Below, in pieces: positions 9,628-57,116 of a stretch of DNA of 64,000 nt (positions within the stretch are counted from its first letter, which is position 1; each line of letters starts with the position of its first letter). Made by a program: the position numbers and the translations under genes. The notes under the pieces are model-generated. The model was not told the origin of the DNA, made no database searches, and worked only from the letters and a program-made list of their open reading frames with translations. Source of the stretch: a virus; IMG/VR virus record IMGVR_UViG_3300032053_005312, positions 14,650 through 78,649 of that record; one strand, written 5' to 3'.

Positions 9628-9864
9628 AACTCTGTAGTGTAAGCAACACGCCATTCAATGGTCCTCGTGCCGTAATTGGATGGAAATGCTTGGTAAATCC
9701 AATAGGCCACCAGTTTGCTGGGTTCTATGGGCTAGTCCGAGAGAGAGCGAGTCAAAGGGTGGTATTCCCTGTACGCAAATTGACAACGCCTACGGGATTA
9801 ACGACCGGGGCCGATAGTCTAGCAGTCCTTCGGCAGTGGGTTTGACCCCCACAGGGACCAACCA
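9628..9864 (+). ncRNA. Structured RNA region ending in T arm, acceptor strand and ACCA (tRNA-like, long insert)
   Basis: gtggg-tttgacc-cccac-agggacca-acca; 5' partner tggtcct(9659) or tgggttct(9719); several internal stems; no credible ORF. Confidence 0.5.
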
Positions 9865-9887
9865 TCATGCCTTTTAGAAAGCAGAAC

Positions 9888-9995
9888 ATGAAGTTCGCCA
9901 TACTGATCCTTGTGGTGTCGATTTCAGGATGTGTCACACTCGATCCACACAAGATGCCTCCGCTGCATCTTGTGGCAAAACAGAAGGCTAAATGA
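9888..9995 (+). CDS. Small lipoprotein (35 aa)
   Basis: MKFAILILVVSISGC lipobox; translated by hand. Confidence 0.5.
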   Translation: MKFAILILVVSISGCVTLDPHKMPPLHLVAKQKAK

Positions 9996-10278
9996 ACATT
10001 TATAAACCTATTCGTGATGGTCCAGACAGAAAGAAATTTCTCGTTTGGAACTACTTGGAGAATCTAATGCCAACAATCTCATTGAGATTAGCTTGGATGC
10101 CCCCTGGCCACCGGAAAACCGAGATCAGGGTCAATGATTTGAGTGGTTCTTGGCACTGGCAGGCTGTCAGGAGTGGGGATTCTGTCATAGAATAGCCGAA
10201 CTAAGGTTCGCTCAAAGGGAGCGGACACGAATAAGGCGAATAAAGGCAGAGCGGGACCACAGATTATCTGCTAACTTT

Positions 10279-10348
10279 GTTCCGTCCGTTGGATTGCGGC
10301 GTCGAGTTTCCTAAACTTGATAAATTGGTTCGATTCCAATACGGAATA
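10279..10348 (+). tRNA. Non-canonical tRNA-Arg(CCT)
   Basis: gttccgt/acggaat+A; D arm ccgt-tggatt-gcgg; gtcgagt-ttCCTaa-acttgat; attgg-ttcgatt-ccaat. Confidence 0.78.
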
Positions 10349-10378
10349 CTTTGGTGTTTGTTGTCAGAAAGGATTGCC

Positions 10379-10618
10379 ATGAAATATTGCACTTACGTTA
10401 GATCCCAAGGCATCCTTGGTTGGTTGCATGGCTGGTTCTTAGTCGGTATTTCCGACGAACAACGAACATCTGGATATGTGACCGAGTTCGCTTATTTTGG
10501 CATCAAGGTGCTGTTGCTTGAAATGGAACCACCACTAACACCTAAATTTCACTTCGTTCCCAAGGGAGCGAAGATCATGGGATCAGGAACCGTATCGGTA
10601 TACAGGATTTGGAAATGA
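10379..10618 (+). CDS. Hypothetical protein
   Basis: SD-like aagga before ATG. Confidence 0.55.
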   Translation: MKYCTYVRSQGILGWLHGWFLVGISDEQRTSGYVTEFAYFGIKVLLLEMEPPLTPKFHFVPKGAKIMGSGTVSVYRIWK

Positions 10619-10818
10619 ATAAGTGGCTTATATTTGCTCTATTTTGTTTGTTGTTATTGGGATGCAGACACAAGCCGACCAAGGTGACGAATCCGACTCC
10701 GGGCGGCATTATTGTCGTAGACCAAGAAGGCAACGAATCAGAGTTCCTTCCTTTGACTGAAGATGAGTTTAAGAAACTCCAAGTCCGGGCGAAGGATTCA
10801 AAGCAAAACAGTAGATAA
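10615..10818 (+). CDS. Small lipoprotein
   Basis: MNKWLIFALFCLLLLGC lipobox. Confidence 0.65.
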   Translation: MNKWLIFALFCLLLLGCRHKPTKVTNPTPGGIIVVDQEGNESEFLPLTEDEFKKLQVRAKDSKQNSR

Positions 10819-10859
10819 TTACCTGCGGCTCTTTTTCGCAAGAGAAATAGCCTTTGCAC

Positions 10860-10962
10860 GGTCGGGTAACTCAGCGGCAGAGTCATCAGTGAATCCGGGT
10901 GGTTTTATAGTTGCCATTGCGGAAAGTTGATGAGGTCGCAGGTTCGAGTCCTGCCCCGGCCA
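10860..10962 (+). ncRNA. tRNA-like gene with a 37-nt structured insert replacing the anticodon loop
   Basis: ggtcggg/cccggcc+A, D arm actc/gagt, stem atcag/ttgat, T arm gcagg-ttcgagt-cctgc. Confidence 0.75.
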
Positions 10963-10964
10963 CT

Positions 10965-11591
10965 ATGAATGAGTTCGAGGGTTTAGTTTCAGTCAAAGAT
11001 GAAGTAGTCGATGGGGTGGGAGATTGGCTTTGGCCACAGTCCGATCTACACGGCTTCAAAGCATTGACTGCTAACTGGCGGGAAGAACACAGATGGACCT
11101 ACTTAGAACACATCAAGAAATTCGACGTTGTGGTTCAAGCAGGCGGGCATTGCGGATTATGGCCCCGATTATTGGCTGGACTTTTCAACAGAGTATACAC
11201 CTTCGAGCCAGACGCAATGAATTTTCATTGTCTTGTGCATAATTGCCAGCGAGACAATATATTCAAGATAAATGCGGCACTTGGCGCAGAGTGTAAATTC
11301 GTCGCTCTTTCAAAGTTCAAAGAGCCAGACAATACTGGAACCCATTTCATTGAAGGCGTTGGCAGCATTCCAATGCTGACAGTGGATTCCTTCAACTTTG
11401 ATGCTTGCGATTTCTTGCAGATTGACGTTGAGCGATACGAATTAAACGTCTTGAAGGGAGCCAAGAAGACCTTGGCGAAATTCAAGCCTGTGTTGTCGAT
11501 AGAAAGAACCAACGAAGAAATAGAGGCGTTCCTGAATCAGTTTGCCTACACCAGAGGTAGAACTGCTGAGATGGACACGATATACTACTAA
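10965..11591 (+). CDS. FkbM family methyltransferase
   Basis: VQAGGHCG, YTFEP, DFLQIDVERYELNVLKGA..KPVLSIE. Confidence 0.88.
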   Translation: MNEFEGLVSVKDEVVDGVGDWLWPQSDLHGFKALTANWREEHRWTYLEHIKKFDVVVQAGGHCGLWPRLLAGLFNRVYTFEPDAMNFHCLVHNCQRDNIFKINAALGAECKFVALSKFKEPDNTGTHFIEGVGSIPMLTVDSFNFDACDFLQIDVERYELNVLKGAKKTLAKFKPVLSIERTNEEIEAFLNQFAYTRGRTAEMDTIYY

Positions 11592-11592
11592 C

Positions 11593-11877
11593 ATGGAAAT
11601 TGGCGGCTACGATCTGATATTCAAAACAGAAGACCCGAAGGGTTTGGTTCAACGAATAATGGAATTCGTGAACTGGCCGGAAGGTATAATTGAACAAGAT
11701 GAAGGCGATGACTTCTTCTGGTACAAGGATTCTGATTCAAAACGTGGTTGGGACATGGAAGGAGCCGTGCCATCACTTGAAAATACGATGGTTTATTTTC
11801 TGCCACGAAAAGAAGAATTGACAGTAGTTGTTGATAAAGAAATGGCATTGGCCATTCGAGAAAATTTCGGATTATAA
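11593..11877 (+). CDS. Hypothetical protein
   Basis: ORF directly after the methyltransferase. Confidence 0.6.
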   Translation: MEIGGYDLIFKTEDPKGLVQRIMEFVNWPEGIIEQDEGDDFFWYKDSDSKRGWDMEGAVPSLENTMVYFLPRKEELTVVVDKEMALAIRENFGL

Positions 11878-11910
11878 CAACAAATTGTTGTTATAAGGCA
11901 TACATACCTT

Positions 11911-12300
11911 ATGCGAACGAGAAACAACGAGTTGAATCGCACTCATCAACAGCGATGGTATGCTCAAAATAAAGAGCTTCAAATACAAAGAAACAATGCC
12001 AATCGAGAAAAAAAGCTGACGTGGTTCATTGAATATAAAAGGAATTTGAAGTGCGAGTTGTGTCCTGAATCCCATATAGCGGCTTTGGATTTTCATCATT
12101 GTGATCCAAAGAAGAAAAGAGCGGGCATTAACAGACTGATAAATAACAACAATAGTTTAGAGGTCATACAAGAAGAAATACAAAAGTGCAGGGTGTTATG
12201 CAGTAATTGTCATCGCAAACTACACTACGAAGAAAAGACGGGAGCATGGTGTAACGGTAGCACACGGGATTTATACCCCCGGCCTAAAGGTGAAGCCTGA
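11911..12300 (+). mobile_element. Free-standing HNH homing endonuclease; ORF reads into the downstream tRNA
   Basis: CELC..ALDFHH..EEIQKCRVLCSNCHRKLH; AT-rich. Confidence 0.8.
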
Positions 12301-12337
12301 TTAGCTTCAAGAGAAGGTTCGATTCCTTCTGCTCCTA
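12240..12337 (+). tRNA. tRNA-Ile(TAT) with a 31-nt variable region
   Basis: gggagca/tgctcct+A; gtgt/gcac; cggga-ttTATac-ccccg; gaagg-ttcgatt-ccttc. Confidence 0.72.
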
Positions 12338-12350
12338 CTATGTGATTGCA

Positions 12351-12638
12351 ATGGGCAAGAACAACAAATACCACAAATTCCCTCCCCGCAAGCAGGTTCC
12401 TGTCGGCGGGGTTTGTCTTTTGTGTGAATGCAACAGACAAGTGCGAATGGCAGCACGACCCTTTGTTAAGGGCAAGGCAATTTCTAATGCCCTGGGCTTT
12501 CCTGCACCGATGCCATTGATTTGTCCAGGGATGATATTCAAAGGCGTCAATAACTTGACAGGCGAAGAGGAATCGTTCAAAGTACATTGTGTATTGATTC
12601 TGAATCCAGAACGTAGTTCAGTAGAAAGAATAAAATGA
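12351..12638 (+). CDS. Hypothetical Cys-containing protein
   Basis: ORF overlapping the GluRS start (ATGA). Confidence 0.5.
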   Translation: MGKNNKYHKFPPRKQVPVGGVCLLCECNRQVRMAARPFVKGKAISNALGFPAPMPLICPGMIFKGVNNLTGEEESFKVHCVLILNPERSSVERIK

Positions 12639-13543
12639 ACATCACACGCATTGCTCCGTCGCCGACCGGCGATATGCACATTGGCACTGCCAGAACTGCA
12701 TATTTCAACTGGCTCGCAGCACGGGCCAGCGGTGGCAAGTTCATTCTTCGGGTGGACGACACCGATCAGAAGCGAAACGATCCAGCCTATACAGAAGTCA
12801 TTCTGTCCACTATGAAGTGGCTGGGTCTGGACTACGATGAGATCGTATTCCAGAGTTCCAGATTCGACACATACAAGGCCGCAGCGGGCTTGTTGATCCA
12901 TGAAGGCTGGGCTGTTCCGAAAGATGGGGCCACGGTCTTCAATTTGAAGAAGGACCATGTGTTCCCTTCTCATTGGAAGGACGAAATCAAGGGCGACATC
13001 AAGATTAGTGCCGACGACATATCTCATATGGATGGGATGGTTCTCATTAAGTCTGATGGAAGTCCATCTTATAATTTTTGTTCAATTGTTGATGATTTGC
13101 ATATGGGGGTTAACCTAATCATCCGTGGAGTAGATCACATAACAAACACAGCAAAGCAGGTGATGCTTTGGGATGTTCTCAACAGCGGACAGACGCTACC
13201 AAGATTTGCCCACCTTGGTCTTATTTGCATTGATGGAAAGCCTATGTCCAAAAGAGACGGGGCATCGAGCATGTTGAATTACATGAACGCCGGATATGAT
13301 GCCGACGCCATGTTGAATTTTCTTGCACGGCTTGGCTGGGGACCAACAAAGGATGATAAGTCCACAACCCTCTTACCGAGAGATAAGATGCTTGAAATGT
13401 TTCTAACTTCGGGTAAGATGAGAAGCCAGCCAGCTAGTTTTGATTCTGGCAAATTAGAGTCGTTTGACCGCAAATACAAGGCCCGTAAGGGTACTTGGCG
13501 AACGGGCGACAAGTTGATTCCTGACACCAACAAAGAGGAATAG
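12635..13543 (+). CDS. Minimal glutamyl-tRNA synthetase-like protein (catalytic core only; GluQ-like size)
   Basis: TRIAPSPTGDMHIGTART, FILRVDDTD, IIRGVDH, KPMSKR, LARLGW; no anticodon-binding domain. Confidence 0.88.
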   Translation: MNITRIAPSPTGDMHIGTARTAYFNWLAARASGGKFILRVDDTDQKRNDPAYTEVILSTMKWLGLDYDEIVFQSSRFDTYKAAAGLLIHEGWAVPKDGATVFNLKKDHVFPSHWKDEIKGDIKISADDISHMDGMVLIKSDGSPSYNFCSIVDDLHMGVNLIIRGVDHITNTAKQVMLWDVLNSGQTLPRFAHLGLICIDGKPMSKRDGASSMLNYMNAGYDADAMLNFLARLGWGPTKDDKSTTLLPRDKMLEMFLTSGKMRSQPASFDSGKLESFDRKYKARKGTWRTGDKLIPDTNKEE

Positions 13544-13545
13544 GC

Positions 13546-13830
13546 ATGAACGAGGGAACTAAACTTGACATTGAACTGGCAAAAGACAAGGCGTGCGAGC
13601 AATTCGTGCGTCGTTGTCGATATGCCATTTGCATTGAGAAGATCGACAACGGTGGTCTACATGCTGGTGCGCCGATGTACTTCTACTGCAAGGACTGTGG
13701 CATTCCTACGGAAGTCTTGCCCGAAGACTATCTGTTCCCGCCACTGCGTCAGTGCAGCCAATGCCAAGGTCTTCATCAACAAGGCTGGATGGAACATGCC
13801 AAGTCTATGGCGAAGGACGATGATCTATAG
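13546..13830 (+). CDS. Hypothetical Zn-binding protein
   Basis: IDNGGLHAGAPMYFYCKDCG..CSQC. Confidence 0.65.
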   Translation: MNEGTKLDIELAKDKACEQFVRRCRYAICIEKIDNGGLHAGAPMYFYCKDCGIPTEVLPEDYLFPPLRQCSQCQGLHQQGWMEHAKSMAKDDDL

Positions 13831-13918
13831 GATCGAATGAATATCCCAGGGATACGTTATACCCCGGACATACTTTCGGTGCTTGACCGATAGTAAGTTC
13901 GGGGTATAATTATTTACT

Positions 13919-14152
13919 ATGGATAATGAACAAGTTGCAGAGACAGAAAAGAAACCTCTGACACTCAAAGATATATGCCTTGGAGTGTTTGGCGTATTCA
14001 TCATTCTGGCAATATTTGCCTTGCCTATTATGTTCCTGATGAATTTCCTTTTACCAGTTTTCGGTGTAGATCGGCAGATTGACTACCAGCATTCGTTGGC
14101 GTTTGCGGTTCTTCTGTTTTGCATGGGGCGATGCTTCAGCCCAGCCAAGTGA
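13919..14152 (+). CDS. Small membrane protein
   Basis: Two hydrophobic helices; TTGACC..TATAAT promoter just upstream. Confidence 0.65.
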   Translation: MDNEQVAETEKKPLTLKDICLGVFGVFIILAIFALPIMFLMNFLLPVFGVDRQIDYQHSLAFAVLLFCMGRCFSPAK

Positions 14153-14191
14153 TTTTACAACTGAAGCAAATCAGGGTATAATCCGGCTGTC

Positions 14192-14561
14192 ATGAAAAAA
14201 AACCGATGCCTACAAATTCTTGCATTTGTTGGTTGAAAAGTATCCGAGCGATGCGGCTCCGATGCTGATTGACATCATTGTGGACTATTTGCTGTTTCCG
14301 AAGGGCGACGGCACCAGCCCTCAACTTGTTGGCATTGACCAAAAAGTTGCCGAAATGATGGCCGATCCGGGTCGCAAGATTGAAGCCGTCAAATACGTTC
14401 GAGATGAACTTAAATGTGGTCTTAAAGAAGCCAAGGACTACGTTGAGCAACGAGTGTGGCCCGCTGGCGTCGGTCCTCAAAGTGAAAAGGCTTTAGAACT
14501 ACAATCCCGATATGTGCAATCGGTTTTGGACAAAATTCGTGTTGATTATAATGTAGGGTGA
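14192..14561 (+). CDS. Protein with ribosomal L7/L12 C-terminal-like domain; start out of frame across an A8 run
   Basis: KIEAVKYVR..GLKEAKDYVE; ATG at 14192 joins the frame only if A8 is read as A7. Confidence 0.65.
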
Positions 14562-14567
14562 TATTGC

Positions 14568-15131
14568 ATGGCTGGATCGTTAGAAAGATTCGACTTCCAA
14601 GGTCGAAGTCTTGTGCGTGATGTATTCATTGAAACTGGCACCTACCTGGGCCAGTCTTCGGAGAATGCGTCTCGTGCGGGGTTCAAACACGTCCATACCA
14701 TCGAAGTCTCCGACAGGATATTTGCACTGGCTCAAGAGCGATTTGCAGGCCGGTCAGACGTGACGGCACATCATGGCTCCAGTCCTAGTGTGCTGCCAAG
14801 CCTGTGTGATCCTAAGTTGTCAACTGTGTTTTATCTGGACGGCCATTACCAAGGTGGGCCGCTTGATGAAAATGATCCGTTGGTGGGTGAATGTCCTCTG
14901 ATATTGGAGTTGGATATTATTCGAGCGGTGGCCTGGGAAACTCCACCAATCATCATTATTGATGACTCGAAGATATTCACTATTGCGGCTGAAAGTCGTG
15001 ATGACTATTTGAAAAACTGTCACCTTGATCCGGTCTTTTGGCCAAGTTATCAACAGGTGATTGATGCGTTGGGACCGGCCTATACGGTCTACGAAGAAGA
15101 TGATAGGCTGTACTGCATACCTGGGGAGTGA
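14568..15131 (+). CDS. SAM-dependent methyltransferase-like protein
   Basis: FIETGTYLG, HTIE, GSS, FYLDGHY, IIIIDD. Confidence 0.78.
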   Translation: MAGSLERFDFQGRSLVRDVFIETGTYLGQSSENASRAGFKHVHTIEVSDRIFALAQERFAGRSDVTAHHGSSPSVLPSLCDPKLSTVFYLDGHYQGGPLDENDPLVGECPLILELDIIRAVAWETPPIIIIDDSKIFTIAAESRDDYLKNCHLDPVFWPSYQQVIDALGPAYTVYEEDDRLYCIPGE

Positions 15132-15478
15132 CATGGACCAGAACTGGAAGAAGTTTCTCAAGTGGCAATGGTCGGAAATCAAGAAGTATTTCGGACTACG
15201 AGTCCTGGGTGGATAGTCTCGGCTACCATGCTGGCAATGGCAACGGTACAGCACTGCTCCAAGAGTGGGTGAAGTACAAGAGCCATAACAAGAATGCCAA
15301 GCTGATTTGCATCGACCTGACCCCTCGTGCAAACCATCAGGTCAAGGAACGTGAAGATATTCTCCAGGTCGGTGGATTCTCGGACAACGTATTCAACGTG
15401 ATCGCAAGGTTCGTTGAAGGTGGCTGGTCGAAGGATTTTTGGGTCAAGGAGATTGAAAGCGTTCAACTGGATACTTAA
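15128..15478 (+). pseudogene. C-terminal vWA remnant of a TROVE/Ro60 protein
   Basis: ISDYESWVD..AKLICIDLTP..DILQVGGFSDNVF..WVKEIE; N-terminal TROVE domain absent; joined to an unrelated 5' piece. Confidence 0.7.
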
Positions 15479-15534
15479 AATATATCCAGCTAGGTTTGGC
15501 TGGGGACCGGGTTGCTGGTCCTCGGCCTGCTTTT

Positions 15535-15657
15535 TGGCGGGTAGCTCAATGGTAGAGCAAAAGTAAAAACAAATCTAAGCGATATTTGGGCTTCGGCCAT
15601 GCAGTTTGGATTACATTATCCAACTTTAGGTTGTGTGTTCGATTCACACCCCGCCAG
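15535..15657 (+). ncRNA. tRNA-like gene with a 58-nt multi-hairpin insert replacing the anticodon loop
   Basis: tggcggg/cccgcca+G, D arm gctc-aatggta-gagc, stem aaagt/acttt, T arm gtgtg-ttcgatt-cacac. Confidence 0.75.
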
Positions 15658-15689
15658 CTTTTCCAGCAAACTTTATTTTCAGGTGATAT

Positions 15690-15812
15690 ATGGCTAAAGG
15701 TAATAACGCACAGAAGAACGACAAGAAAGACAAAAAGCAATCCAAGAATGCCAAGAAGACAACAGCTACGGCAAGTCAGCCCGCTGTTATTGGCAAGTCC
15801 AAGGGTAAGTAA
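15690..15812 (+). CDS. Small Lys-rich peptide (40 aa)
   Basis: SD aggtga; MAKGNNAQKNDKKDKK...; translated by hand. Confidence 0.45.
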   Translation: MAKGNNAQKNDKKDKKQSKNAKKTTATASQPAVIGKSKGK

Positions 15813-16040
15813 TGCCGAAAAGGACAAAACATCCTGACGGCTCTGTGTGTCTTGACGGAATTCGTAGCACTCGTCGCAACAAGCAAGTTTGTTGCGACGA
15901 TTTTTACTTCCGCACTGCAACTTGTGTTTACGACATAAGGTATCAGTGGTATAATCGCCAGAAGACTTGGGGCATTCCTGTTTGTGATGGCGGGAGCAGC
16001 TTCATTGCCATAACCTTCTGTCCACACTGCGGAGTCAAAT

Positions 16041-16892: not shown

Positions 16893-17227
16893 TGTTTAAG
16901 ATCAAGCATGATTCCTTCGTGTACATTGATGACGCAAAACGTATTGGCGAATGTCGCTATGACGTTATTGCAACTATTGATTCACGATGGATTGTGGTGT
17001 TCACGGAATTGTTGAAGAATCCAGGGCCGAGTGTCACAAATGCCATCGAGTCTATTGTTCCACAATTTTGCCGATGCACTAGCCTCAAGCCAGAGGAAGT
17101 GATGTTTATTGAGCGATACCAAACGCATCCAGATGATCTTGATGTGATAAACTATCAGCCCGATGGCACAACGAGTTGGAGTAGGCTTCCAGAGGATCAA
17201 GCTCGTCCAATCTTGGAGTTACTATGA
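16892..17227 (+). CDS. Hypothetical protein
   Basis: TELLKNPGPSVTNAIE..FIERY pattern. Confidence 0.65.
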   Translation: MFKIKHDSFVYIDDAKRIGECRYDVIATIDSRWIVVFTELLKNPGPSVTNAIESIVPQFCRCTSLKPEEVMFIERYQTHPDDLDVINYQPDGTTSWSRLPEDQARPILELL

Positions 17228-18139: not shown

Positions 18140-18168
18140 CCCTGTAAGAAGGGAACAGAAAATGCAAA

Positions 18169-25407: not shown

Positions 25408-25592
25408 GCAGATTGATGTTGGTTCTAGGATTAGTCATTGGGTTTTGGGCGGGCCATTGGTTCGCCCGAACTTCATGGCATCAACGATGGTATGCTCAGT
25501 GGTATGAGGGGTTTCTCAACGGCGCTGTTGTTGCAGCAATACTGGTGGGCATCTACTTCATTGTCATAAGAAATTGGAAACAATCTTCTTAG
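25404..25592 (+). CDS. Small membrane protein
   Basis: Two TM segments; ATGA overlap. Confidence 0.6.
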   Translation: MSRLMLVLGLVIGFWAGHWFARTSWHQRWYAQWYEGFLNGAVVAAILVGIYFIVIRNWKQSS

Positions 25593-25667
25593 GGGTTGCA
25601 CGGTGAGTCCAATCGGTAAGGCGCAAGTCGCTCCGATTAACTGAGGGTTCGATTCCCTCCAACTCCA
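25592..25667 (+). ncRNA. Anticodon-less Ala-acceptor tRNA-like RNA resembling the tmRNA tRNA-like domain
   Basis: ggggttg/caactcc+A (G3.U70, A73), stem aatcgg/ccgatt capped by ggc-GCAA-gtc, T arm gaggg-ttcgatt-ccctc. Confidence 0.68.
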
Positions 25668-25669
25668 CT

Positions 25670-25954
25670 ATGAATGAAAAACCAGCCGATGGCGTCCGAG
25701 GCTTCTTTCTCTACAGTCCGTTTTCGCATCGACACTTCTTCCGTGTTTACGGAGAAGTCGATCCGACGACGGGCCATAAGACGTTCACCGATTACAAGGT
25801 GTGCGCCGAAGATATAGAAGTCACGATTGAAGCGAATGGGTTGTCCCTGTATGAAGGGGACGAAGATAAAAACCGCCTTGATTGGTCCAGCCGTGTCTTA
25901 GGAAGAGATGGCAAAGACCACTTGGATGTGCGAACACCAAAAAAGGAACAGTAA
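25670..25954 (+). CDS. Hypothetical protein
   Basis: ATG 2 nt after the RNA discriminator. Confidence 0.65.
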   Translation: MNEKPADGVRGFFLYSPFSHRHFFRVYGEVDPTTGHKTFTDYKVCAEDIEVTIEANGLSLYEGDEDKNRLDWSSRVLGRDGKDHLDVRTPKKEQ

Positions 25955-42976: not shown

Positions 42977-43022
42977 ATCGAGCATTGCGGCTTTGGTATC
43001 CTCTTATTTATGGAGGATAAAT

Positions 43023-44114
43023 ATGAAGCCTTTTTCAGATTTGCGCAAACAACAATTTGGTTTGCATGTCGTTCTTGAATATGTTGATCGAACACCTAGC
43101 GGACATGCTCGTTGGTTGACTGAATGTTTGAATTGCAAGTGTCGTTCTATTCGTCACGGAGTAAATATCAAAAGATGCTCTAAAGTTTCAGGAGGTTGTC
43201 GCAATTGTTCTGGTAAGCCAAAGGGGTACATGGGTCTACATCAATTATTTACTCAATATAAATTACGTGCAAATAAAATAGGTCGTATTTTTAATTTGTC
43301 TATTGAACAATTTCAAACAGTTACATCAAGCAATTGTCATTATTGTGGTCGTGAGCCATATCAAATTAAAAACAGTGGTAACAAGAATCAAATTTCAACG
43401 TGGGGCATTTATCAATATAATGGAATTGATCGCAAGGACAATTCTAAGGGTTACATTATAGAAAACTGTCTTCCTTGTTGTGGAATTTGCAATCAGATGA
43501 AAGGCAGTATGTTGTATAAAGATTTTGTTGATTGGCTCGATGTTGCGTCCACTTTTCGCAAAAATAGAAATGGTGATAAGGTGATGGCGGACATCGGCGT
43601 CGGATACAGGGTCAAAATTCAAATTTTATGCGGAATGATCGCAGCAGGAAAGTCATCTTATTGTAAATTAGCCGCCAAAAAAGGAATGTTGATTTTGAAC
43701 GATGACGCAATCGTCAATATGCTCCATGCTGATGACTATACGCTTTATAGTACCGATCTCAAGGTGTTGTATAAGTCTGTTGAAAATCACGTTATTGGAA
43801 CCAGCCTTGCTATGGGCCGTTCAGTAATTGTTGATCGTGGACTCAATATGAGTCTTGCCGGTCGGCGTCGTTGGTTGGCCTTGGCTCAAAGTTTTGATGT
43901 GCCATGTGAAGCCATTCATTTCAAAAACGACGGACCAGAAGAACACGCTCGTCGTCGTACTCAATCTGATGGTCGAGGCCACACCTGGGAATATTGGCTT
44001 AGGGTTGCAGAGCTTCATAATTCCTTGTATATTCCACCTACTAAAGAAGAGGGCTTTGATGCCATCTACGATATTGGGTTTGATGAAATACAGCAAGGTA
44101 AAGTCATTCTTTAA
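43023..44114 (+). CDS. HNH-type endonuclease fused in frame to a P-loop (AAA_33/PNK-like) kinase
   Basis: CHYCG..NGIDRKDNSKGYIIENCLPCCGICNQMK, then LCGMIAAGKSS, VIVD, EEGFD. Confidence 0.8.
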   Translation: MKPFSDLRKQQFGLHVVLEYVDRTPSGHARWLTECLNCKCRSIRHGVNIKRCSKVSGGCRNCSGKPKGYMGLHQLFTQYKLRANKIGRIFNLSIEQFQTVTSSNCHYCGREPYQIKNSGNKNQISTWGIYQYNGIDRKDNSKGYIIENCLPCCGICNQMKGSMLYKDFVDWLDVASTFRKNRNGDKVMADIGVGYRVKIQILCGMIAAGKSSYCKLAAKKGMLILNDDAIVNMLHADDYTLYSTDLKVLYKSVENHVIGTSLAMGRSVIVDRGLNMSLAGRRRWLALAQSFDVPCEAIHFKNDGPEEHARRRTQSDGRGHTWEYWLRVAELHNSLYIPPTKEEGFDAIYDIGFDEIQQGKVIL

Positions 44115-49434: not shown

Positions 49435-49520
49435 GTAAAAAAATGGCTGTTCGCCGTCCCGAATTCATGGATTGACGAAATCGTGGCGTATTACGTTTTG
49501 GACAAACCAGGCGTTTTCGT

Positions 49521-50111: not shown

Positions 50112-50184
50112 GTAAGTATTGTTCTGAAAAAAATTGCGGTATTATTGAAGAGGACTTGATCTACTTAACAATGGGGTATAAATC

Positions 50185-50952
50185 ATGGTTAGTGGTCCCA
50201 CATTTATAGAAAGGGTCTTTTCTTTTCCCAAAGAAATACAACAAGAATTGTGTGTGGCTCATACATATAAACCCGTGCCTAAAGACATTCTAATTGTTAC
50301 TCATAATCAGTTTGAGCATCTTCAACAGTGCGTGCAGTCGATTCGAGATAACACCGAAGATTATCAGATTTATGTGTGGGACAATGGCTCGCAAGAAGAC
50401 ATGCGGTCTTGGTTGGCTTCCCAGCCTGATATTATTGTGACTCGAAGTGAAACAAACCTTGGCTTTATCATTCCGAACAATCGCTTGATTGCCCAAGGTG
50501 AAAATCCGTTCGTCATCCTTTTGAATGACGACACGTTGGTATATCCAGGTTGGGATAAAGCCATGATAGCACATTTGCAAAACGGCATAGCGTCCCAAGT
50601 TGGATATGTTGGCGGTTGGCTTGATGGTGATGCAAAAGGCTCGAAGTTTGGGTGGGGCGGCTCGATGGACTATATCCCAGGTTGGTGTTTTGCTATAAGC
50701 CGTGAAACATATCAAGAATTTGGCCTGTTTGATGAAACACTGGTTTTTGCGTACTGCGAAGACGCCGATTTCTCTATGAGGCTGACCAAGGCGGGAAAGC
50801 AAATCGCTGCTTTACATCTTGGCCTTGTGCATCATTTTGAGAACCAAACTATCAAGAATTCGATTGGTTTCCATGACTGTTGTACCAGTTTTGCAGGCAA
50901 TCACGCAGTTCTGAAAACACGTTGGGGAGATCGCATTTCCACAAGTCGTTGA
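50185..50952 (+). CDS. Glycosyltransferase family 2
   Basis: WDNGS, NLGF, LLNDD, GLFDE..YCEDADF. Confidence 0.88.
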   Translation: MVSGPTFIERVFSFPKEIQQELCVAHTYKPVPKDILIVTHNQFEHLQQCVQSIRDNTEDYQIYVWDNGSQEDMRSWLASQPDIIVTRSETNLGFIIPNNRLIAQGENPFVILLNDDTLVYPGWDKAMIAHLQNGIASQVGYVGGWLDGDAKGSKFGWGGSMDYIPGWCFAISRETYQEFGLFDETLVFAYCEDADFSMRLTKAGKQIAALHLGLVHHFENQTIKNSIGFHDCCTSFAGNHAVLKTRWGDRISTSR

Positions 50953-51073
50953 TGTAAAACGACTTGTGGCAAAAACGCTGGGAACAAGTTCGATTTACAC
51001 GCCGCAATAACTGCGGTAGAATGAACTTAGGAAATTACAACAGCCGCTTTAGATCATTGAAGGGGAAGAATTT

Positions 51074-52381
51074 ATGGCAAAGAGGACGACGACAAACACT
51101 CCGTTGTGTGACTACTGTGGAAAAACCAGTAAGGAAGCGGGACTTTTGGTGGAAAGCCCTGTCGCCGACCGTGAGCAAAACGGTCGCCCGGCTGGGTCAC
51201 GGGTATTTATCTGTGCCGCTTGTGTTGAGCTATGCCAGACGATGGTGAAGCAGAAGAATCAAAAGAAGAGTGCTGGGGTGTCCTTGCCGAAGGAAGTTCC
51301 TACCCCACGAGAGATCGTTGGGTATTTGGACCAATATATCATTGGGCAAGAGCGAGCCAAGCGAACATTGGCGGTGGCTGTATCGAATCACTATAAGCGT
51401 TTACGAGATGATGCTGCTCGACTGGAAGAAATTGATATCACCGATGATCTGGCTGAAACCACCATCGAAAAGAGCAATATTCTTCTGATCGGTCCCACGG
51501 GATCAGGCAAAACATTGCTTGCCAAGACGCTGGCAAAGATTCTTCAGGTTCCGTTTGCCATCGGTGACGCCACGACGTTGACGGAAGCTGGCTACGTTGG
51601 AGAAGACGTGGAGAACTTGGTGTTGAAACTGCTTCGAGAAGCAGATTTCGATGTCGAAGTGGCTCAAACTGGCATCATTTACCTCGATGAAGTGGACAAG
51701 ATCGGAAAGACGAGCCAGAATGTAAGCATCACTCGTGATGTATCTGGCGAGGGTGTGCAGCAAGCGTTGCTGAAGATGCTTGAAGGAACGACCTGTAACG
51801 TCCCACCGACTGGTGGTCGCAAGCACCCGGAGCAGCAGTACATTCAGGTCGATACGACCAATATCTTGTTTATTGTTGGAGGCACGTTTGTTGGCCTCGA
51901 AGACATTATCAACAAGCGTATTGGGCGAAAGTCCATTGGCTTCGGCGCTGGGCGTGAGGCACAGGAAGCTGAAACAGAATGGATTCTGGAGCATGTGACT
52001 GAAGACGACTTGGTTCATTTCGGGTTGATTCCCGAACTGATTGGTCGATTGCCGGTTATCACCCCTCTGAAGGCCCTTGATGAAGATGCTCTGGTTCAAG
52101 TATTGACTGAGCCGAAGGATGCTTTGGTGAAGCAATACAAGAAGCTGTTCCGATACGACAAGGTGGGTTTGGAGTTCACACCTGAAGCACTGAAGGAGAT
52201 CGCCAAGACCGCTGCAAAGAAGGGTACTGGCGCTCGTGGGCTTCGCAGTGTCATCGAGAGCTTCATTACTGAAGTGATGTTTGATCTGCCAGAACATGGT
52301 GGCAAAGTTGTAACGATCACCGACAAGATCGTTCGTGGAGAAGAAACAGTCGCATTCCCCACGAGCAATAAGGCGGCATGA
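51074..52381 (+). CDS. clpX: ATP-dependent Clp protease ATPase ClpX
   Basis: Zn finger, [40 protein letters not shown] loop, GARGLR. Confidence 0.97.
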
Positions 52382-52443
52382 CACTCATTTAAGTTAGGGG
52401 ATGGATTGTCCGTCCCCTAATATTGCAGACAGAGAAGGCAACA

Positions 52444-53094
52444 ATGACAAAACCATATCTCCGACTGATCGGGGACGTTCACGGCAAGATGGAAGAGTAT
52501 ATTTTTCTGGCAGAACAGGCAGAAAATACTATCCAGCTTGGCGACTTGGGGTTTTCGTATAACGCTCTGGCGAAGTTCTTGGACCCGATTAAGCATCGGG
52601 TTCTAGGTGGAAATCATGACAACTATGAAGTGTTGGATAGTCGCTTTCATAAGCAGCCACCGCACTTCTTGGGCGATTATGGGGTGCATAACATCCCTGG
52701 TATCGGTGATTTCTTTTTCGTCCGAGGCGGTCACAGCATTGACAAAGCACAGCGAACCGAAGGCTACGATTGGTGGCCCGGTGAGCAGCTTTCTTATGTT
52801 GATGCTGCAAAAGCACTAGAAGAATACACCAAGGTCCGACCAGCGTTGATGTTGTCCCATGAATGCCCAACCAGCATCATTGATATGATTGCCGGTTTTA
52901 AGACATGGGACGGCGAGCCAATTCGCCCTAGCATGACAGCTAATGTCCTTGAACAAATGTTTGAGGAACACAAGCCGTTATTGTGGGTGTTTGGGCATCA
53001 TCACAAGGTCTTTGATATGGTTGTCGAAGGCACACGGTTCGTTTGTTTGCCTGAACTGGCTTGTCTCGATTTTGATCGTAAAGAGGCCAAATGA
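52444..53094 (+). CDS. Calcineurin-like metallophosphoesterase
   Basis: GDVHG, GDLG, GNHD, SHECP, FGHHH. Confidence 0.88.
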   Translation: MTKPYLRLIGDVHGKMEEYIFLAEQAENTIQLGDLGFSYNALAKFLDPIKHRVLGGNHDNYEVLDSRFHKQPPHFLGDYGVHNIPGIGDFFFVRGGHSIDKAQRTEGYDWWPGEQLSYVDAAKALEEYTKVRPALMLSHECPTSIIDMIAGFKTWDGEPIRPSMTANVLEQMFEEHKPLLWVFGHHHKVFDMVVEGTRFVCLPELACLDFDRKEAK

Positions 53095-53687
53095 GTTACG
53101 TTGTAGCAACATACATGAATCTTGATGCCTGGAATAAAACAGGTGTCAATTGGCTACGAAAAGCCAAATCAGCAGGACTGACTGGCTTTATCGTAGGTGA
53201 TAATCTACCGACCGATGCTGAGTTAAAGGCAAAAGAATTGGGATTCAAAGTGGTCCCTGTGATTGTCAAGTTCGGCGACGAACGTGACCAATATCGAACG
53301 GTAGCAGAAACGATACAGAAAGGTCAGCGGTGCCTTTTTGTAAATTCCAATATTAACCCGAAGGGAGGCATATCAGAAGCAAGAGAAATTACATGCAACC
53401 AAGACGAGTCTCTTGAATTGCTCGAAATGGTATCTCTGATTAGGAATTTACATGACCGGGCTAAAGCGGTCGTTCAAATTCGAGAGAAGATCATTGACGT
53501 GCATAAAGGCTTACTCTCAACAAATAGCGTTTTAGGAACGTGGGATTTTTGGAATAGCCTTAGCGCATTCCACGATTACCTGCAAGAAAAAAACTACCTT
53601 GATCGACGGGCTTCATATAACGAGTTGGTATTCAACCTGTATGTCGCCTTAGCAGAGTCGATTTCCCTGGAGGTCTGTCATGATTAG
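53091..53687 (+). CDS. Hypothetical protein
   Basis: Coupled ORF. Confidence 0.65.
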   Translation: MSYVVATYMNLDAWNKTGVNWLRKAKSAGLTGFIVGDNLPTDAELKAKELGFKVVPVIVKFGDERDQYRTVAETIQKGQRCLFVNSNINPKGGISEAREITCNQDESLELLEMVSLIRNLHDRAKAVVQIREKIIDVHKGLLSTNSVLGTWDFWNSLSAFHDYLQEKNYLDRRASYNELVFNLYVALAESISLEVCHD

Positions 53688-53916
53688 CGCACCACGGAAT
53701 ATTCCGTATTTTTATAACCGTGCATCAGTAGTTCAGTTGAGCCGACTACGAAAGACTTTTCGGCACTTTGGCGTCAATAGCCATCATACCCTTGTGGGTG
53801 AAAGTCTGCTCAGGCTTGGCAAATACGTCACAGAAAGCGCCGTCTGTCAACTGCCAATTGATGCCCCTGGCAAGGCCCTGTTCCGCATGTACAAGTATTA
53901 CGATTCTCTCGAATAG
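53680..53916 (+). CDS. Hypothetical protein
   Basis: SD ggagg; followed by terminator. Confidence 0.55.
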   Translation: MISAPRNIPYFYNRASVVQLSRLRKTFRHFGVNSHHTLVGESLLRLGKYVTESAVCQLPIDAPGKALFRMYKYYDSLE

Positions 53917-53942
53917 ACGTTTTTTCAATTCGATATTCTTCT

Positions 53943-53983
53943 GACCGCCCGGCGAAATACTTTCGTCAGGGCGGTTTTCTTTT
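53943..53983 (+). terminator. Rho-independent terminator
   Basis: gaccgccc..gggcggtt followed by T-run. Confidence 0.7.
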
Positions 53984-54037
53984 GTCATTTCTGGACTTTC
54001 CTCGCTACTTTTTCGTATATGGTAGCTAGATATAAGA

Positions 54038-54601
54038 ATGGAAAAGAAAACATGCTGTCAATGTGAATGTGAGAAACCTGTTTCTGAGTTTACTAAGCGA
54101 GGCGATAAGCCTGGGAGTTGGTGTAAAGTTTGTTACAACTCTTACAAAAGGGCTAACGGGTATAATTCTTACTCAGAGCGGAAGGAATATCTTGCCGCTG
54201 CACAAAGAAAAAATAGAAAAACACAAAATCATAAGCGTTGGGAAAGTGACTATCGAAAAAAGTATGGTTCAACTTTTTCTGGCATGGTTACTAGCTTATT
54301 GTGTAATGCCAAAGATAGGGCAAAGAAAAATGAGTTGGAAATAGATTTAGACAGAACTTGGATTGAACAACATTTGCATCCTCTTATATGCGAGGCTACC
54401 GGCGTAGAATTTACTATGGAGAGGCAATCTGGTGTGTCTCATTCGCCTTTTCGTCCGTCGATAGATAGAATCGACAACAAGAAAGGTTACATTAAAGATA
54501 ATTGCAGAATTGTTTGTGTTATTTACAACAAAGCCAAATCAGACTATAGCGAACTCGACGTAGTTAAAATGGCAAAAGGATTAGTCAAAAAATGCACTTA
54601 A
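54038..54601 (+). mobile_element. HNH-type homing endonuclease
   Basis: CxxC..EKP..CKVC; CEATG; PSIDRIDNKKGYIKDNCRIVC..YN..K; AT-rich. Confidence 0.8.
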
Positions 54602-55017
54602 TATTTGTTTACGGAACTTTGAAAAAAGGTTTTGTCCGTCATAATGCCATTCGCAATCAGCGTTATATTGGCATTGCACGAACAGAGCCTAAGTATGGCA
54701 TGTTTGGCTATGGTGGGTATCCGGCCCTGGTGGATGAAACATTGGCAGAGGTGTCTGGCATAACCGCCAAAACTCGCATATTTGGCGAACTATATGAAGT
54801 CGATGATGCGTGTATGCAGGAACTCGATAAGATTGAAGGAACGGATCGAGGTTTATTCGAGCGACGTGATATTGCCTTGGGTGAAATCACGATGACGACT
54901 CTTCCAAGTGACGAGGCTGTTTGGGGTGGTTTGACTCGTAAAGTTGCCCAAGCATACTTCTTCAAAAAGAAGCTGGCTGGTGCCGGAGATTGCGGTCCTC
55001 TTTGGGTCCAGAAGTAA
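54592..55017 (+). CDS. Gamma-glutamylcyclotransferase (AIG2-like)
   Basis: IFVYGTLKKG, YPALV, GELYEVD..LDKIEG. Confidence 0.88.
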   Translation: MHLIFVYGTLKKGFVRHNAIRNQRYIGIARTEPKYGMFGYGGYPALVDETLAEVSGITAKTRIFGELYEVDDACMQELDKIEGTDRGLFERRDIALGEITMTTLPSDEAVWGGLTRKVAQAYFFKKKLAGAGDCGPLWVQK

Positions 55018-55029
55018 ATTAGACTCTGA

Positions 55030-55058
55030 TTTACAGCCCACAATTTTTGTGGTAGAAT
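55030..55058 (+). promoter_or_regulatory. sigma70-type promoter giving a likely leaderless mRNA
   Basis: TTTACA-N17-TAGAAT, ATG 5 nt downstream. Confidence 0.7.
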
Positions 55059-55063
55059 CCGTC

Positions 55064-55648
55064 ATGAAGACTACAGAGGCGGTTCTACAAGGGCTGTTGA
55101 AATATGCCCGCCCTGAAATCCTAAAGGAATTCAGGGCGGATTCATGTATCGCATCCACTGCCGTAGGGCTTGATATTCTCATGCACTACGGCATTCTTGC
55201 TGAACCTTTTCCCGTTCGCACGTTAATCTTCAACGAACCTTTTACAAGCCGTCTTGAAAATGGCCAAGGTTGGCCTACCGGACAACAAGTTCGAGTCTGG
55301 ACAGAAGAGGATGGTTCTTACAGCGTTGGCATTGGCGTTGGAACTCAACAGCCCAATAAGTGGGCGGGGTATTTGGCTATATTGGTTGAGAAGCGATTAC
55401 TTCTGGACCTTTCAATTGACCAAGCGACTCGTCCTCAGTATAACATGATGTTAGAGCCATTGTGTGTTGAAATAGATGAACAATTTATTTCTGGTTCTCC
55501 GAAAGTATTCAAAGCTGGACAATGCGTAGTCCGAGTTGATGCTTTGCTTGGCAATGAAGGATATACTTCCTCACCAGATTGGTTATTTGCTGGACGTAGA
55601 CGGAAGATAGTCGCTAACACCTTACGACTCATTCAGGGAGAATTGTAA
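55064..55648 (+). CDS. Hypothetical protein
   Basis: SCIAS..WAGYL..LLDLSIDQA.RP. Confidence 0.7.
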   Translation: MKTTEAVLQGLLKYARPEILKEFRADSCIASTAVGLDILMHYGILAEPFPVRTLIFNEPFTSRLENGQGWPTGQQVRVWTEEDGSYSVGIGVGTQQPNKWAGYLAILVEKRLLLDLSIDQATRPQYNMMLEPLCVEIDEQFISGSPKVFKAGQCVVRVDALLGNEGYTSSPDWLFAGRRRKIVANTLRLIQGEL

Positions 55649-56067
55649 TGGAGCCGATTTATGTTTGGTCTTTGATGGGAACGGCCATTACCGTACTCGC
55701 CGCAGCCTGCATCTATCTTGGTCGGTTGGTTCGGTCCCAACGACACAAACTCAAGACATTCACTACTGCTCGTAAGCAGTCGATGATGGATGATCTTGAA
55801 CTCGCCACCAGCGATCAATTGCTGGGTGAATTGCGAAAGCGTCCTGGTGCGCCTTACTTGATGTTGTCGCCCATTCAGGGCGAAGACCATCATGGCCTCA
55901 GTATTGAGATTCACAATATTCCTCCAGTCCCATGTCTTCAGATGTTGCACATGGCAACTAGCTTGACGTTCCATGAACTAAAGAAGCGTGGTGTTGAAAT
56001 ACCTGACTTTCCAGGTGGCCCGGACCAAGAATGCGAAGAAGGTGAAGAGTGGAAGCAGGATTTTTAA
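55648..56067 (+). CDS. Hypothetical membrane protein
   Basis: N-terminal TM helix. Confidence 0.7.
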   Translation: MEPIYVWSLMGTAITVLAAACIYLGRLVRSQRHKLKTFTTARKQSMMDDLELATSDQLLGELRKRPGAPYLMLSPIQGEDHHGLSIEIHNIPPVPCLQMLHMATSLTFHELKKRGVEIPDFPGGPDQECEEGEEWKQDF

Positions 56068-56081
56068 GGAAAGGAAAGGCA

Positions 56082-56753
56082 ATGGTGTCACGGAAAGACC
56101 TTCTTGATAGAGCTTCTGAAGTAACAGAACTTGCGAAATGGTGGGCCACACGCCGCAATTGGAGATACCATCAGATTCGTAAGTTAGGGTCAATGGAAGA
56201 CTTCACGAATGATGTTTGGGTTGGTCTTCTCAAAAATTTTTCGGACCCTGATAAGAATGTTGAAGTCAGTTTTTCAACAGTTGTCGTGAAGCACTGCGAG
56301 TGGCAACTATGTTCATCTGCTCGAATGGGAACAATTGCTTCACGAAGTTTCAGGGAAAAATTAAGGCAAGCTGAGTCTGTACAGGCCGACAATATCGTTA
56401 CTGATGACAGTGAAATAATCGCACAATGTGACGACAAAGCGTTGAAGCAATCAATTGCAAAATTGATGCTATCTTTGACGTGGAGAGAAGCCGCAGTTAT
56501 TCGTGCTAGATTTGGTCTTTTTGGTGATGATAGCTTAACGCTAGAAGCCATTGGCAAAATACTGAATGTTTCGAGAGAAAGAGTCCGATCTATTGAAAGT
56601 AAAGCCTTGGGAAAAATTCAAAATTGTTTTAATCGGTCAATAAAGCTATTGCCTTTTTTTGATGAAATTTGCAGAGAAGCAGAACAAGAAAAAAACCAGG
56701 AAAAGCGAAATCTACTTTACCGTAATATATTTTTACATGGAAGAAGCGAGTGA
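56082..56753 (+). CDS. Sigma70 region-4-containing factor (divergent sigma)
   Basis: LTWREAAVIRARFGL..TLEAIGKILNVSRERVRSIESKALGKI; degenerate region 2. Confidence 0.8.
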   Translation: MVSRKDLLDRASEVTELAKWWATRRNWRYHQIRKLGSMEDFTNDVWVGLLKNFSDPDKNVEVSFSTVVVKHCEWQLCSSARMGTIASRSFREKLRQAESVQADNIVTDDSEIIAQCDDKALKQSIAKLMLSLTWREAAVIRARFGLFGDDSLTLEAIGKILNVSRERVRSIESKALGKIQNCFNRSIKLLPFFDEICREAEQEKNQEKRNLLYRNIFLHGRSE

Positions 56754-56756
56754 GTA

Positions 56757-57002
56757 ATGGATGTAGAACAAAAAGTAAAACAAACGATTTGTGATTGTTT
56801 GTGCGTCGAGTTGGACGCCATAGAGGACAATTCAATTAGGTTAAGCGATTTAGAAGCAGACTCGCTTGACTTGCTTGACCTTGATTTTCAACTCGATAAG
56901 CAATTTGACGGCAAGTTGATTAACGAAATGACTGTCTCTTTGGAGACGACAATTCAAGACGTAATCAACTTTGTCAGGACGGAGATCGGGCCGGTAGCCT
57001 AG
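56757..57002 (+). CDS. acpP: Acyl carrier protein
   Basis: DLEADSLDLLDL phosphopantetheine site; TIQDVINFV. Confidence 0.82.
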   Translation: MDVEQKVKQTICDCLCVELDAIEDNSIRLSDLEADSLDLLDLDFQLDKQFDGKLINEMTVSLETTIQDVINFVRTEIGPVA

Positions 57003-57116
57003 TGACTAAAGCGACGGGACTGTAGCTCAGTGGTAGAGCAAGGAACTCATAATTCCGTGGTCGCTGGTTCGATCCCAGCCAGTCCCATATAATGGGTTTT
57101 AGTCCCACCCGGCCCA
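56988..57116 (+). ncRNA. Outer tRNA-like shell enclosing a complete tRNA
   Basis: gggccgg/ccggccc+A, ta-gcct-agtgacta-aagc D-like arm, tggg-ttttagt-ccca T-like arm. Confidence 0.6.
57016..57087 (+). tRNA. tRNA with CAT anticodon (Ile2-like body; elongator Met not excluded)
   Basis: gggactg/cagtccc+A; aggaa-ctCATaa-ttccg; gctgg-ttcgatc-ccagc. Confidence 0.9.

Follow-up and report, generated by a model that had tools for sequence, protein, structure and literature searches.

Y RNAs and the Ro60 proteins that bind them have been studied from bacteria to humans. The origin of the bacterial Y RNAs known as YrlA is debated, a dimeric tRNA having been proposed, and we know of no identified partner for their tRNA-like half. 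Two other systems resemble the genes described here. Engineered tRNA scaffolds carry recombinant RNA as a cargo in the anticodon stem, to have it processed and protected by the cell, and in phage T4 the stable RNAs C and D are small non-decoding RNAs that sit in the tRNA cluster and are processed with the tRNAs, a likeness by description for which we know of no Ro60 link. YrlA (Rfam RF02553) is a tRNA-like Y RNA bound by bacterial and phage Ro60/Rsr; its gene and that of Ro60 share a strand and are no more than 4 kb apart, and the RNA resembles a circularly permuted tRNA, with both RNA ends forming the Ro60-binding stem and the acceptor helix closed by a loop (Chen et al. 2014, PMC4201824; Wang et al. 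2018, bioRxiv 10.1101/312249). Here we examine tRNA-like genes in a stretch of 64,000 nt, hereafter the window, that comprises bases 14650-78649 of the 78.6-kb viral contig IMGVR_UViG_3300032053_005312. An earlier note on this DNA had claimed a recurrent design at a minimum of four loci and probably at a fifth, in which tRNA bodies keep their acceptor and T arms while the anticodon region holds other structured sequence. From sequence comparison, three of these loci (starting at window positions 10860, 15535 and 25592; Table 1) are predicted to be conserved non-decoding tRNA-bodied RNAs, and one of them, 15535, is identifiable as a predicted Ro60 partner with a wiring that is undescribed in the literature searched. 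The engineered scaffold is artificial, whereas the phage arrangement is natural and its cargo is a predicted docking site or a conserved loop.

The window belongs to a huge phage that has translation and tRNA-repair genes of its own. Relatives were obtained by protein-guided searches. One of them, G001 (340 kb), has 90-96% nucleotide identity. G002 (532 kb, rated complete) encodes a methionyl-tRNA synthetase (MetRS) 49% identical to that of the window and has gene order in common with it over window positions 7.6-27 kb; G003 (101 kb) and G005 (436 kb) are further relatives. None of 50,697 phage records was matched in a BLAST search with 7.9 kb of the window.

In place of the 7-nt anticodon loop, the RNA at 10860 has 39 nt, that at 15535 has 58 nt, and that at 25592 has 16 nt. 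The claim that the acceptor and T arms are kept held at all three loci, where both arms are intact, and the D arm and anticodon stem are also kept at 10860 and 15535. None of the three has a 7-nt anticodon loop bearing U33 and a purine at position 37, and no excision restores one. In a script-based scan of the 78.6-kb contig for T arms followed within 400 nt by a 7-bp acceptor, the + strand gave 38 matches and the - strand 0. Beyond normal tRNAs, the matches consisted of 10860-10962 (103 nt), 12240-12337 (98 nt), 15535-15657 (123 nt), and 25592-25667 (76 nt). The cargo had been called unrelated structured sequence; the four cargoes do differ mutually, but each is conserved or identifiable in itself.

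Phages with a MetRS only ~49% identical have all three cargo RNAs as well, and compensatory changes among relatives occur in acceptor, D, T, and cargo helices, as would be expected from the argument that random decay would not spare the same arms. Since whole-element MAFFT alignments put the anticodon stems out of register, they were replaced by model-based alignments, in which compensatory pairs numbered 5 of 11 in the 15535 module, 8 of 28 at 10860 (changed on both sides), and 9 of 22 at 25592. These counts bear on whether the loci are instead scars, that is, tRNA genes hit by insertion or recombination in the anticodon region and now decaying. Decay of this kind is real elsewhere in this genome: compared with G001, four damaging changes have accumulated in the outer shell at 56990-57115, another embedded Y RNA (contig 7467-7540) has been truncated, and the Ro60 gene is itself deleted. 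At the three loci, however, every helix is held by compensatory changes across phages whose marker proteins are ~49-64% identical, and the window copies differ from those of G001 at 1-2 positions while their flanks differ by 4-10%. The covariation counts rule out scars at 10860, 15535, and 25592, and the explanation, extremely improbable as a general account, holds only for the outer tRNA at 56988.

The RNA at 15535 is a full cloverleaf with acceptor UGGCGGG/CCCGCCA and discriminator G, and it bears a Y module on its anticodon stem, whose strands AAAGU/ACUUU are separated by the 58-nt insert in the Rfam tRNA match. In the window, helix 2 of this module is UCUAAGC/GUUUGGA, the internal loop has GAUAUUUG facing AUGCA, and helix 1 is U-[G]-GGC/GCC-A capped by UUCG. 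The fold that recurs among inserts is a 7-bp helix (UCUCAGC/GUUGGGA) with an asymmetric internal loop (GCCAAUUUG opposite AUGCUUA), then a short helix that contains a bulged G and is capped by UUCG or UACG, and after it the conserved tail UUACAU. In the module alignment (A8), 100% of cells are paired, both helices covary, and none of 500 shuffles reached as high a compensatory count. The insert is near-unchanged in seven further tRNA bodies, two in G001 and five in G002, whose acceptor, D, and T arms are quite different from those of 15535. A model of the insert found exactly eight embedded copies (in G000, which is this contig, G001, and G002) and a further, truncated copy on this contig, and no copy in G003 or G005.

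The motifs of this module match those of YrlA. AUGC, GGGA-UUAC (a G-rich helix followed by UAC), and UUG ahead of the closing stem make up the Rfam YrlA consensus at the Ro60-binding end, and the motif stem carries all of these in both RNAs. In both, too, a tRNA-shaped domain of D arm, T arm, and acceptor helix is joined to the motif stem via the anticodon stem, and Ro60 is an immediate neighbor of the gene on a shared strand, with several gene copies per genome. The order is reversed: whereas YrlA begins and ends in its Ro60 stem, the 15535 RNA has normal 7-bp acceptor ends with a discriminator, and its putative Ro60 stem is closed by UUCG. Further differences are an imperfect CGAA motif, a score under the Rfam threshold, and the deletion of Ro60 in this phage. 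On this evidence, the cargo of 15535 is predicted to be the Ro60-binding module of YrlA-type Y RNAs, and the whole RNA appears to have YrlA connectivity, opened at the acceptor and closed at the Ro60 stem. No description of a Y RNA in tRNA gene order was found in the literature searched.

The same motifs occur in RNAs that stand alone. Those of permuted form (terminal stem, AAAUGC, GGGAUUACAU, variable hairpin, AGUCUCAUCACC, AAUUUGUU, terminal stem) lie 3' of tRNA genes at contig 9683-9771, outside the window, and in G001, G002, and G003; they are also found in unrelated phage contigs. Two canonical-order RNAs with GGGAUUACAU on contig L062 are YrlA by Rfam (56.1 and 44.6 bits; E 1e-11 and 2.5e-8), and one canonical-order RNA of G002 gave a weak YrlB match (27.5 bits, E 0.21) far under the family threshold. 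The free-standing RNAs of the clade (e.g., contig 9683-9771 and L015 12989-13078) have the same 5'-3' stem, internal loop, and second helix as YrlB and the Yrl1/Yrl2 RNAs of Thermus phage phiLo (PMC12135203). They have motifs in common with the 15535 cargo but differ from 15535 in having no tRNA body and lying outside the window. An exact-pattern scan of viral contigs for AATGC..GGGATTACAT returned at least 117 stretches, about the number estimated by chance, and only a handful beside tRNAs looked real.

The neighborhood of 15535 points to the same partner. Just upstream in the window is the remnant of a Ro60 gene (Table 1), which matches vWA_Ro60 profile positions 117-165 (E 0.06); relative to G001, 1.76 kb is missing here, taking the first ~485 Ro60 codons. 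G001 has an intact 581-aa open reading frame (ORF) with a Ro60 vWA domain (59 bits) and a TROVE match, and this ORF ends 56 nt upstream of the orthologous 15535 RNA, the same distance as that of the remnant in the window. In G002, a 621-aa Ro60 counterpart lies ~0.8 kb upstream of one Y RNA copy. The placement published for YrlA genes, less than 4 kb from Ro60 and on the same strand, is thus seen with the window remnant, in G001, and in G002. Because the Ro60 gene has since been deleted in this phage, the 15535 RNA is probably an orphan here. If it works as known Y RNAs do, it would link the phage Ro60 ring to any binding partner of its tRNA-shaped half. The earlier suggestion of a scaffold that stabilizes small RNAs is not supported at this locus, where the identified cargo is a predicted protein-docking Ro60 stem beside the Ro60 gene, with no small RNA needing stabilization.

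Could these instead be intron-bearing tRNA genes, with the inserts excised and the halves joined by phage enzymes (nuclease-kinase, ligase, and RlaP) into normal decoding tRNAs, as the earlier note had also proposed? In its intron mode, ARAGORN does report the loci as tRNAs with 5-51-nt introns, and near-identical inserts occur in different tRNA bodies of one genome. These introns, however, fall at odd positions and give anticodons such as AAA and AUC with a pyrimidine at position 37, and once the inserts are removed, the loop at none of the three window loci combines U33 and a sensible anticodon with a purine at 37. The 15535 insert is, moreover, homologous to stand-alone Y RNAs and linked to Ro60. 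Inserts of 16-58 nt are too short for group I or group II introns (a group I ribozyme core takes ~200 nt or more), and Rfam gave no intron match at the cargo loci at E up to 10. No tRNA splicing endonuclease (PF01974) or RtcB was found in G000, G001, G002, G003, or G005, five phage records of which one is complete; hosts were not searched. As for the enzymes said to be encoded in the window, RlaP and the kinase are present, the latter as a fusion with an HNH/EndoVII domain, while the ligase is a weak domain match only (E 0.0019, below cut-off). RlaP with a kinase is a common tRNA-repair kit of jumbo phages against tRNA-cutting defenses (PMC7824862). Overall, we regard splicing as disfavored and intron-bearing genes as a very unlikely explanation. 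The insert that looks most like a true intron, and the only one found to do so, is in a tRNA-Lys(CUU) of G002 (L015 13184-13278), where a 21-nt hairpin is flanked by UU and its removal restores a perfect CUCUUAA loop; this gene looks like the best lead for splicing in the clade. In the fusion protein (window 42993-44114), the HNH/endonuclease VII-like domain covers residues 55-183 and the polynucleotide-kinase-like P-loop domain residues 208-322.

At 10860, the RNA combines acceptor, D, and T arms with a 5-bp anticodon stem, which runs on into a rod made of an internal loop, a 3-4-bp helix, a second internal loop, a 4-bp helix, and a 9-nt loop, UUUAUAGUU (10904-10912). Model R1, built from this RNA, matched G002:25615-25717 with 86.8 bits. 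The homologue lies at the same place in the gene order, and its loop is identical to UUUAUAGUU. Across the pair, 100% of cells are paired and each of the six helices contains at least one pair changed on both sides. Because the rod is long, the loop cannot reach a codon in the usual geometry. The RNA is predicted to display an invariant 9-nt loop at the end of a ~12-bp rod. An antisense target of the loop was sought and none was found, and an exact-pattern scan of viral contigs for GGTTTTATAGTTGCC returned 51 stretches, about the estimated chance number, among which only the one in G002 looked real. The resemblance of CUGAUGA next to GAAA to a hammerhead was rejected, as it is a strand of the anticodon stem and leaves no room for ribozyme stems.

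The loop of 10860 contains UU-UAU-AG, similar to the anticodon loop of the adjoining tRNA-Ile(UAU), and this likeness would suit a decoy. Under that explanation, 10860 and 25592, being uncleavable or non-decoding, would soak up anticodon nucleases, tRNA-modifying enzymes, or uncharged-tRNA sensors. Their bodies are held under selection though decoding is impossible, and the phage tRNA-repair kit implies pressure from tRNA-cutting defenses (PMC7824862). However, a decoy would be expected to hold its anticodon loop at the normal distance from the elbow, and the actual rod is ~12 bp longer; invariant apical loops fit a specific partner better than a generic sponge; and there is no linked defense or target gene. 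We therefore find decoys quite unlikely.

Several features of the neighboring tRNA-Ile(UAU) can be recorded here. In the window, a 1.35-kb cassette (10964-12314), consisting of an FkbM-type methyltransferase and two small ORFs, lies between it and the 10860 RNA, while in G001 just 18 nt separate the two RNA genes. The cassette's break points coincide exactly with RNA gene ends, and the same is true at 25592, where an additional 0.78-kb ORF is present in G001. Four phages have a tRNA-Ile(UAU) whose variable arm is long (window 12240-12337, L016 7217-7315, L012 15141-15233, and L020 6405-6494). The arm is a covarying hairpin with a 7-nt loop, CUGAUUA or CAGAUAA, that displays GAU, the other isoleucine anticodon, and the acceptor stems of window and G001 differ by four compensatory pairs. 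The variable arm may be a second, mimic anticodon arm that serves as an identity mark for isoleucyl-tRNA synthetase (IleRS).

The third RNA, at 25592, resembles tRNA-Ala. It is without a D stem and has a 6-bp helix closed by 16 nt, with UAAGG and a 4-bp hairpin whose loop is CAAGU. Model R2, built from it, scored 111 bits in G001, 77.8 bits in G003, and 45 bits in G002. The G003 member lies inside a tRNA array, and that of G002 lies downstream of MetRS and a small membrane ORF, as in the window. Throughout the family, G1-C72, G2-C71, G3:U70, and G4-C69 are invariant, with conservation also of the segment GG-UAAGG-C-N-CAAGU-N-G. In G002, where the D arm is normal, the RNA clearly derives from tRNA-Ala. 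A pattern scan for the loop found only the two relatives already known. The G3:U70 pair is the established main identity element for alanyl-tRNA synthetase, and since it is kept in all four genomes, the RNA probably accepts alanine. Unable to read a codon, it would most likely be alanine-charged and used off the normal decoding path, and the leading candidate use is together with the SmpB that relatives encode.

SmpB (~190 bits) is encoded in G001 (245484-245903), G002 (107580-107993), and G005 (303976-304392), and none is found on this 78.6-kb contig. G001 and G002 have no transfer-messenger RNA (tmRNA) above the Rfam threshold, and G005 has a full tmRNA and a second, 143-nt match above threshold (100789-101152 and 325378-325520). 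It is conceivable, if still on the unlikely side, that 25592 is a tag-less mini-tmRNA, alanine-charged and SmpB-bound, which rescues stalled ribosomes untagged or blocks host trans-translation. Like the tRNA-like domain of tmRNA, it has G3:U70, A73, a T arm, a helix replacing the anticodon arm, and, in three of the four genomes, an unpaired D region, and the family is kept in all four. On the other hand, the G002 member has a full D arm, so that resemblance to the tmRNA domain is not general to the family, and 25592 descends visibly from tRNA-Ala. With a total length of 77 nt, it has no tag reading frame, pseudoknots, or mRNA-like domain, and the phage SmpB may simply work with host tmRNA. The tmRNA model picks up 25592 via the acceptor and T arm only (model positions 1-17 and 346-374), and this match is unspecific, as ordinary tRNA-Ala genes score as high or higher.

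The cargo RNA genes lie within or beside tRNA arrays and on the same strand as these. At nearly all of the 41 tRNA and tRNA-like 3' ends, including those at 10860, 12240, 15535, and 25592, the discriminator is followed by C-U. With this signature in common, the cargo RNAs should resemble the phage's own tRNAs to the 3' processing machinery. Their array position, strand, and 3' signature suggest that they are probably cut out by RNase P and 3' tRNA-processing enzymes and that the CCA-adding enzyme completes their ends. In each, the anticodon arm would have been made longer and tipped by an element doing a specific job. A broader proposal joins several claims: that the tRNA body is a general chassis for at least three ribonucleoprotein handles, which are CCA-tailed because their ends are true acceptor ends and in some cases aminoacylated; that the Y RNAs bring Ro60 to tRNA-handling enzymes or the ribosome; that the G3:U70 RNA is a tag-less SmpB partner rescuing or jamming stalled ribosomes; and that the tRNA order is ancestral to YrlA by permutation. 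Taken jointly, these claims are doubtful.

A number of observations weigh against the interpretation of the three RNAs as tRNA bodies with selected cargo. The Y insert is near-identical within one genome while the tRNA bodies are diverse, so it could be a mobile insert rather than a selected docking site. Against the Rfam YrlA model, 15535 scores 18.4 bits in a partial match on a different part, where the gathering threshold is 69 bits, a low score that we attribute to the permuted order. The Ro60-contact motif GNCGAA(N)G is imperfect, being GGGAAUG in G002 and GGCCAUG in the window and G001, so that the CGAA position reads GGAA and CCA, respectively. The G001 orthologue of 15535 has a 1-nt deletion in the 5' strand of its acceptor. 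Four other phage Ro60 neighborhoods (proteins 39-46% identical) contained no such RNA by Rfam or model R3; a single R3 match in L057 was discounted, as it is without a tRNA body. No specific partner is indicated for 10860 or 25592, the tmRNA-model match of the latter is no better than that of ordinary tRNA-Ala genes, and the alignments behind the pair counts of both were fitted to structure and hold only 3-4 lineages. Among the public runs listed, no RNA run contains this DNA. With these points taken into account, we still consider it probable that a tRNA body carries non-decoding RNAs in this huge-phage clade.

A Y RNA built as a complete tRNA with open acceptor ends would make tRNA-like processing, CCA tailing, and charging testable, as well as which tRNA-binding protein gets brought to Ro60. 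One phage can have several Y RNA copies on different tRNA bodies (five in the 532-kb G002), which suggests that their targets differ. The 10860 and 25592 families would extend the design beyond Ro60, and the alanine-type acceptor, together with phage SmpB in G001 and G002, where no full tmRNA was found, may offer a lead into how huge phages handle stalled ribosomes. At present, annotation misses such genes or calls them intron-bearing or pseudo tRNAs. A tRNA body in G005 (95839-95926; L213 1501-1588) has an anticodon stem, UUCAG/CUGAA, around 20 nt that contain a GCC-GCAA-GGC hairpin, which would be a fourth kind of cargo in the clade. At several tRNA-like elements (window 10963-10967, 12338-12342, and 25669-25673), the next gene begins directly (..A-CU-AUG), so that a ribosome-binding site would not fit; the arrangement has the look of tRNA punctuation that yields almost leaderless mRNAs.

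Table 1. Features of the window considered in the text (window positions).
Feature	Position	Strand	Evidence
tRNA-bodied RNA, family 1	10860..10962	+	Rfam tRNA 41.1 bits, end to end
Ro60 gene remnant, last 97 codons	15128..15478	+	65% identity over 95 aa to the Ro60-like C-terminus of G002, E 2e-42
Predicted YrlA-type Y RNA in tRNA gene order	15535..15657	+	Rfam tRNA 51.5 bits, full model
Y module (predicted)	15574..15616	+	helix 2, internal loop, helix 1, UUCG closure, then UUACAU
tRNA-Ala-like RNA, family 2	25592..25668	+	acceptor GGGGUUG/CAACUCC, G3:U70, A73, T arm
Outer relic of tRNA(CAU): acceptor, D arm, T arm	56990..57115	+	intact 74-nt tRNA at the same site in G001
Canonical tRNA-Met(CAU), nested	57016..57087	+	ARAGORN; Rfam 69.9 bits
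Block unsupported as tRNA scaffold	9628..9864	+	near-identical to G001 over ~180 nt

The two remaining loci of the claimed design fared differently: with 56988, the observation holds at four of the five loci, and 9628-9864 is unsupported. At 56988, the nesting of one tRNA within another is real, but this is a replacement event with a decaying shell and not a maintained scaffold. The outer arms read GGGCCGG-UA-GCCU-AGUGACUA-AAGC on the 5' side and UGGG-UUUUAGU-CCCA-CCGGCCC on the 3' side, and at the same place G001 has a single plain tRNA(CAU) with exactly the same outer arms and acceptor GGGCCGG/CCGGCCC. Compared with that gene, the anticodon arm and variable loop (24 nt) are replaced in the window by GAC, a complete tRNA-Met, and UAUAA. 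The outer shell is damaged at four points: the D stem has a C-A mismatch, the first T-stem pair is a mismatched A-C, G57 has become U, and the C-U trailer is lost; the nested tRNA-Met is also without C-U after its discriminator. A tRNA-Met gene has thus replaced the anticodon arm of an older tRNA(CAU), whose outer shell is decaying.

The block at 9628-9864 did not hold up as a tRNA scaffold. It gave no tRNA match at E up to 10 and a folding z-score of +0.42, its T loop, UUUGACC, is without C56, and its proposed acceptor pairing, CTCTGT/ACAGGG, is broken by a G-to-T change in G001. BLAST found no homologue beyond G001. It was also considered as a Y RNA, and neither reading held in G001. Within it, window positions 9683-9860 differ from G001 by one base over ~180 nt, where the flanks differ by ~4%, and the hairpin beside this segment differs from that of G001 in sequence and length yet still pairs. 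The segment overlaps an 84-aa ORF, matches no Rfam family, and contains AAAUGC and AGUCUAGC-AG-UCCUUCGG, which recall the Y module; a structured RNA may be encoded here.

All genes of the window are on the + strand. They include those for MetRS, a 302-aa protein with a glutamyl-tRNA synthetase (GluRS) catalytic domain, an ArgRS-like protein, RlaP, a PARP-WGR protein, ClpX, and a sigma factor. ARAGORN found 36 standard tRNAs on the contig, seven of these in the window, and the tRNA total of the contig is 36-40, every one on the + strand. DNA contigs of four sediment or vent runs yielded only identical fragments and joints that were ordinary tRNAs of other organisms. The 302-aa protein (window 12635-13543) is the GluRS/GlnRS catalytic domain only, lies between tRNA-like RNAs, and has the size and make-up of a glutamyl-Q tRNA(Asp) synthetase. 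At window 10274-10349, ARAGORN reports a tRNA-Arg(CCU) that Rfam does not see and that has an odd D arm. Its acceptor, GUUCCGU/ACGGAAU, differs from the GCCCCGU/ACGGGGU of G001 by two compensatory pairs, and because of these the tRNA is probably functional despite the D arm. Upstream of the window, a 247-nt tRNA-like element with an acceptor and T arm lies at contig 1375-1621. Other odd tRNA-like genes there (contig 7255-7394, 186-276, 4014-4097, and 2030-2104) comprise a 142-nt element that has a large insert, a tRNA-Asn and a tRNA-Lys that carry extra variable-arm hairpins, and a tRNA whose anticodon loop is 6 nt long.

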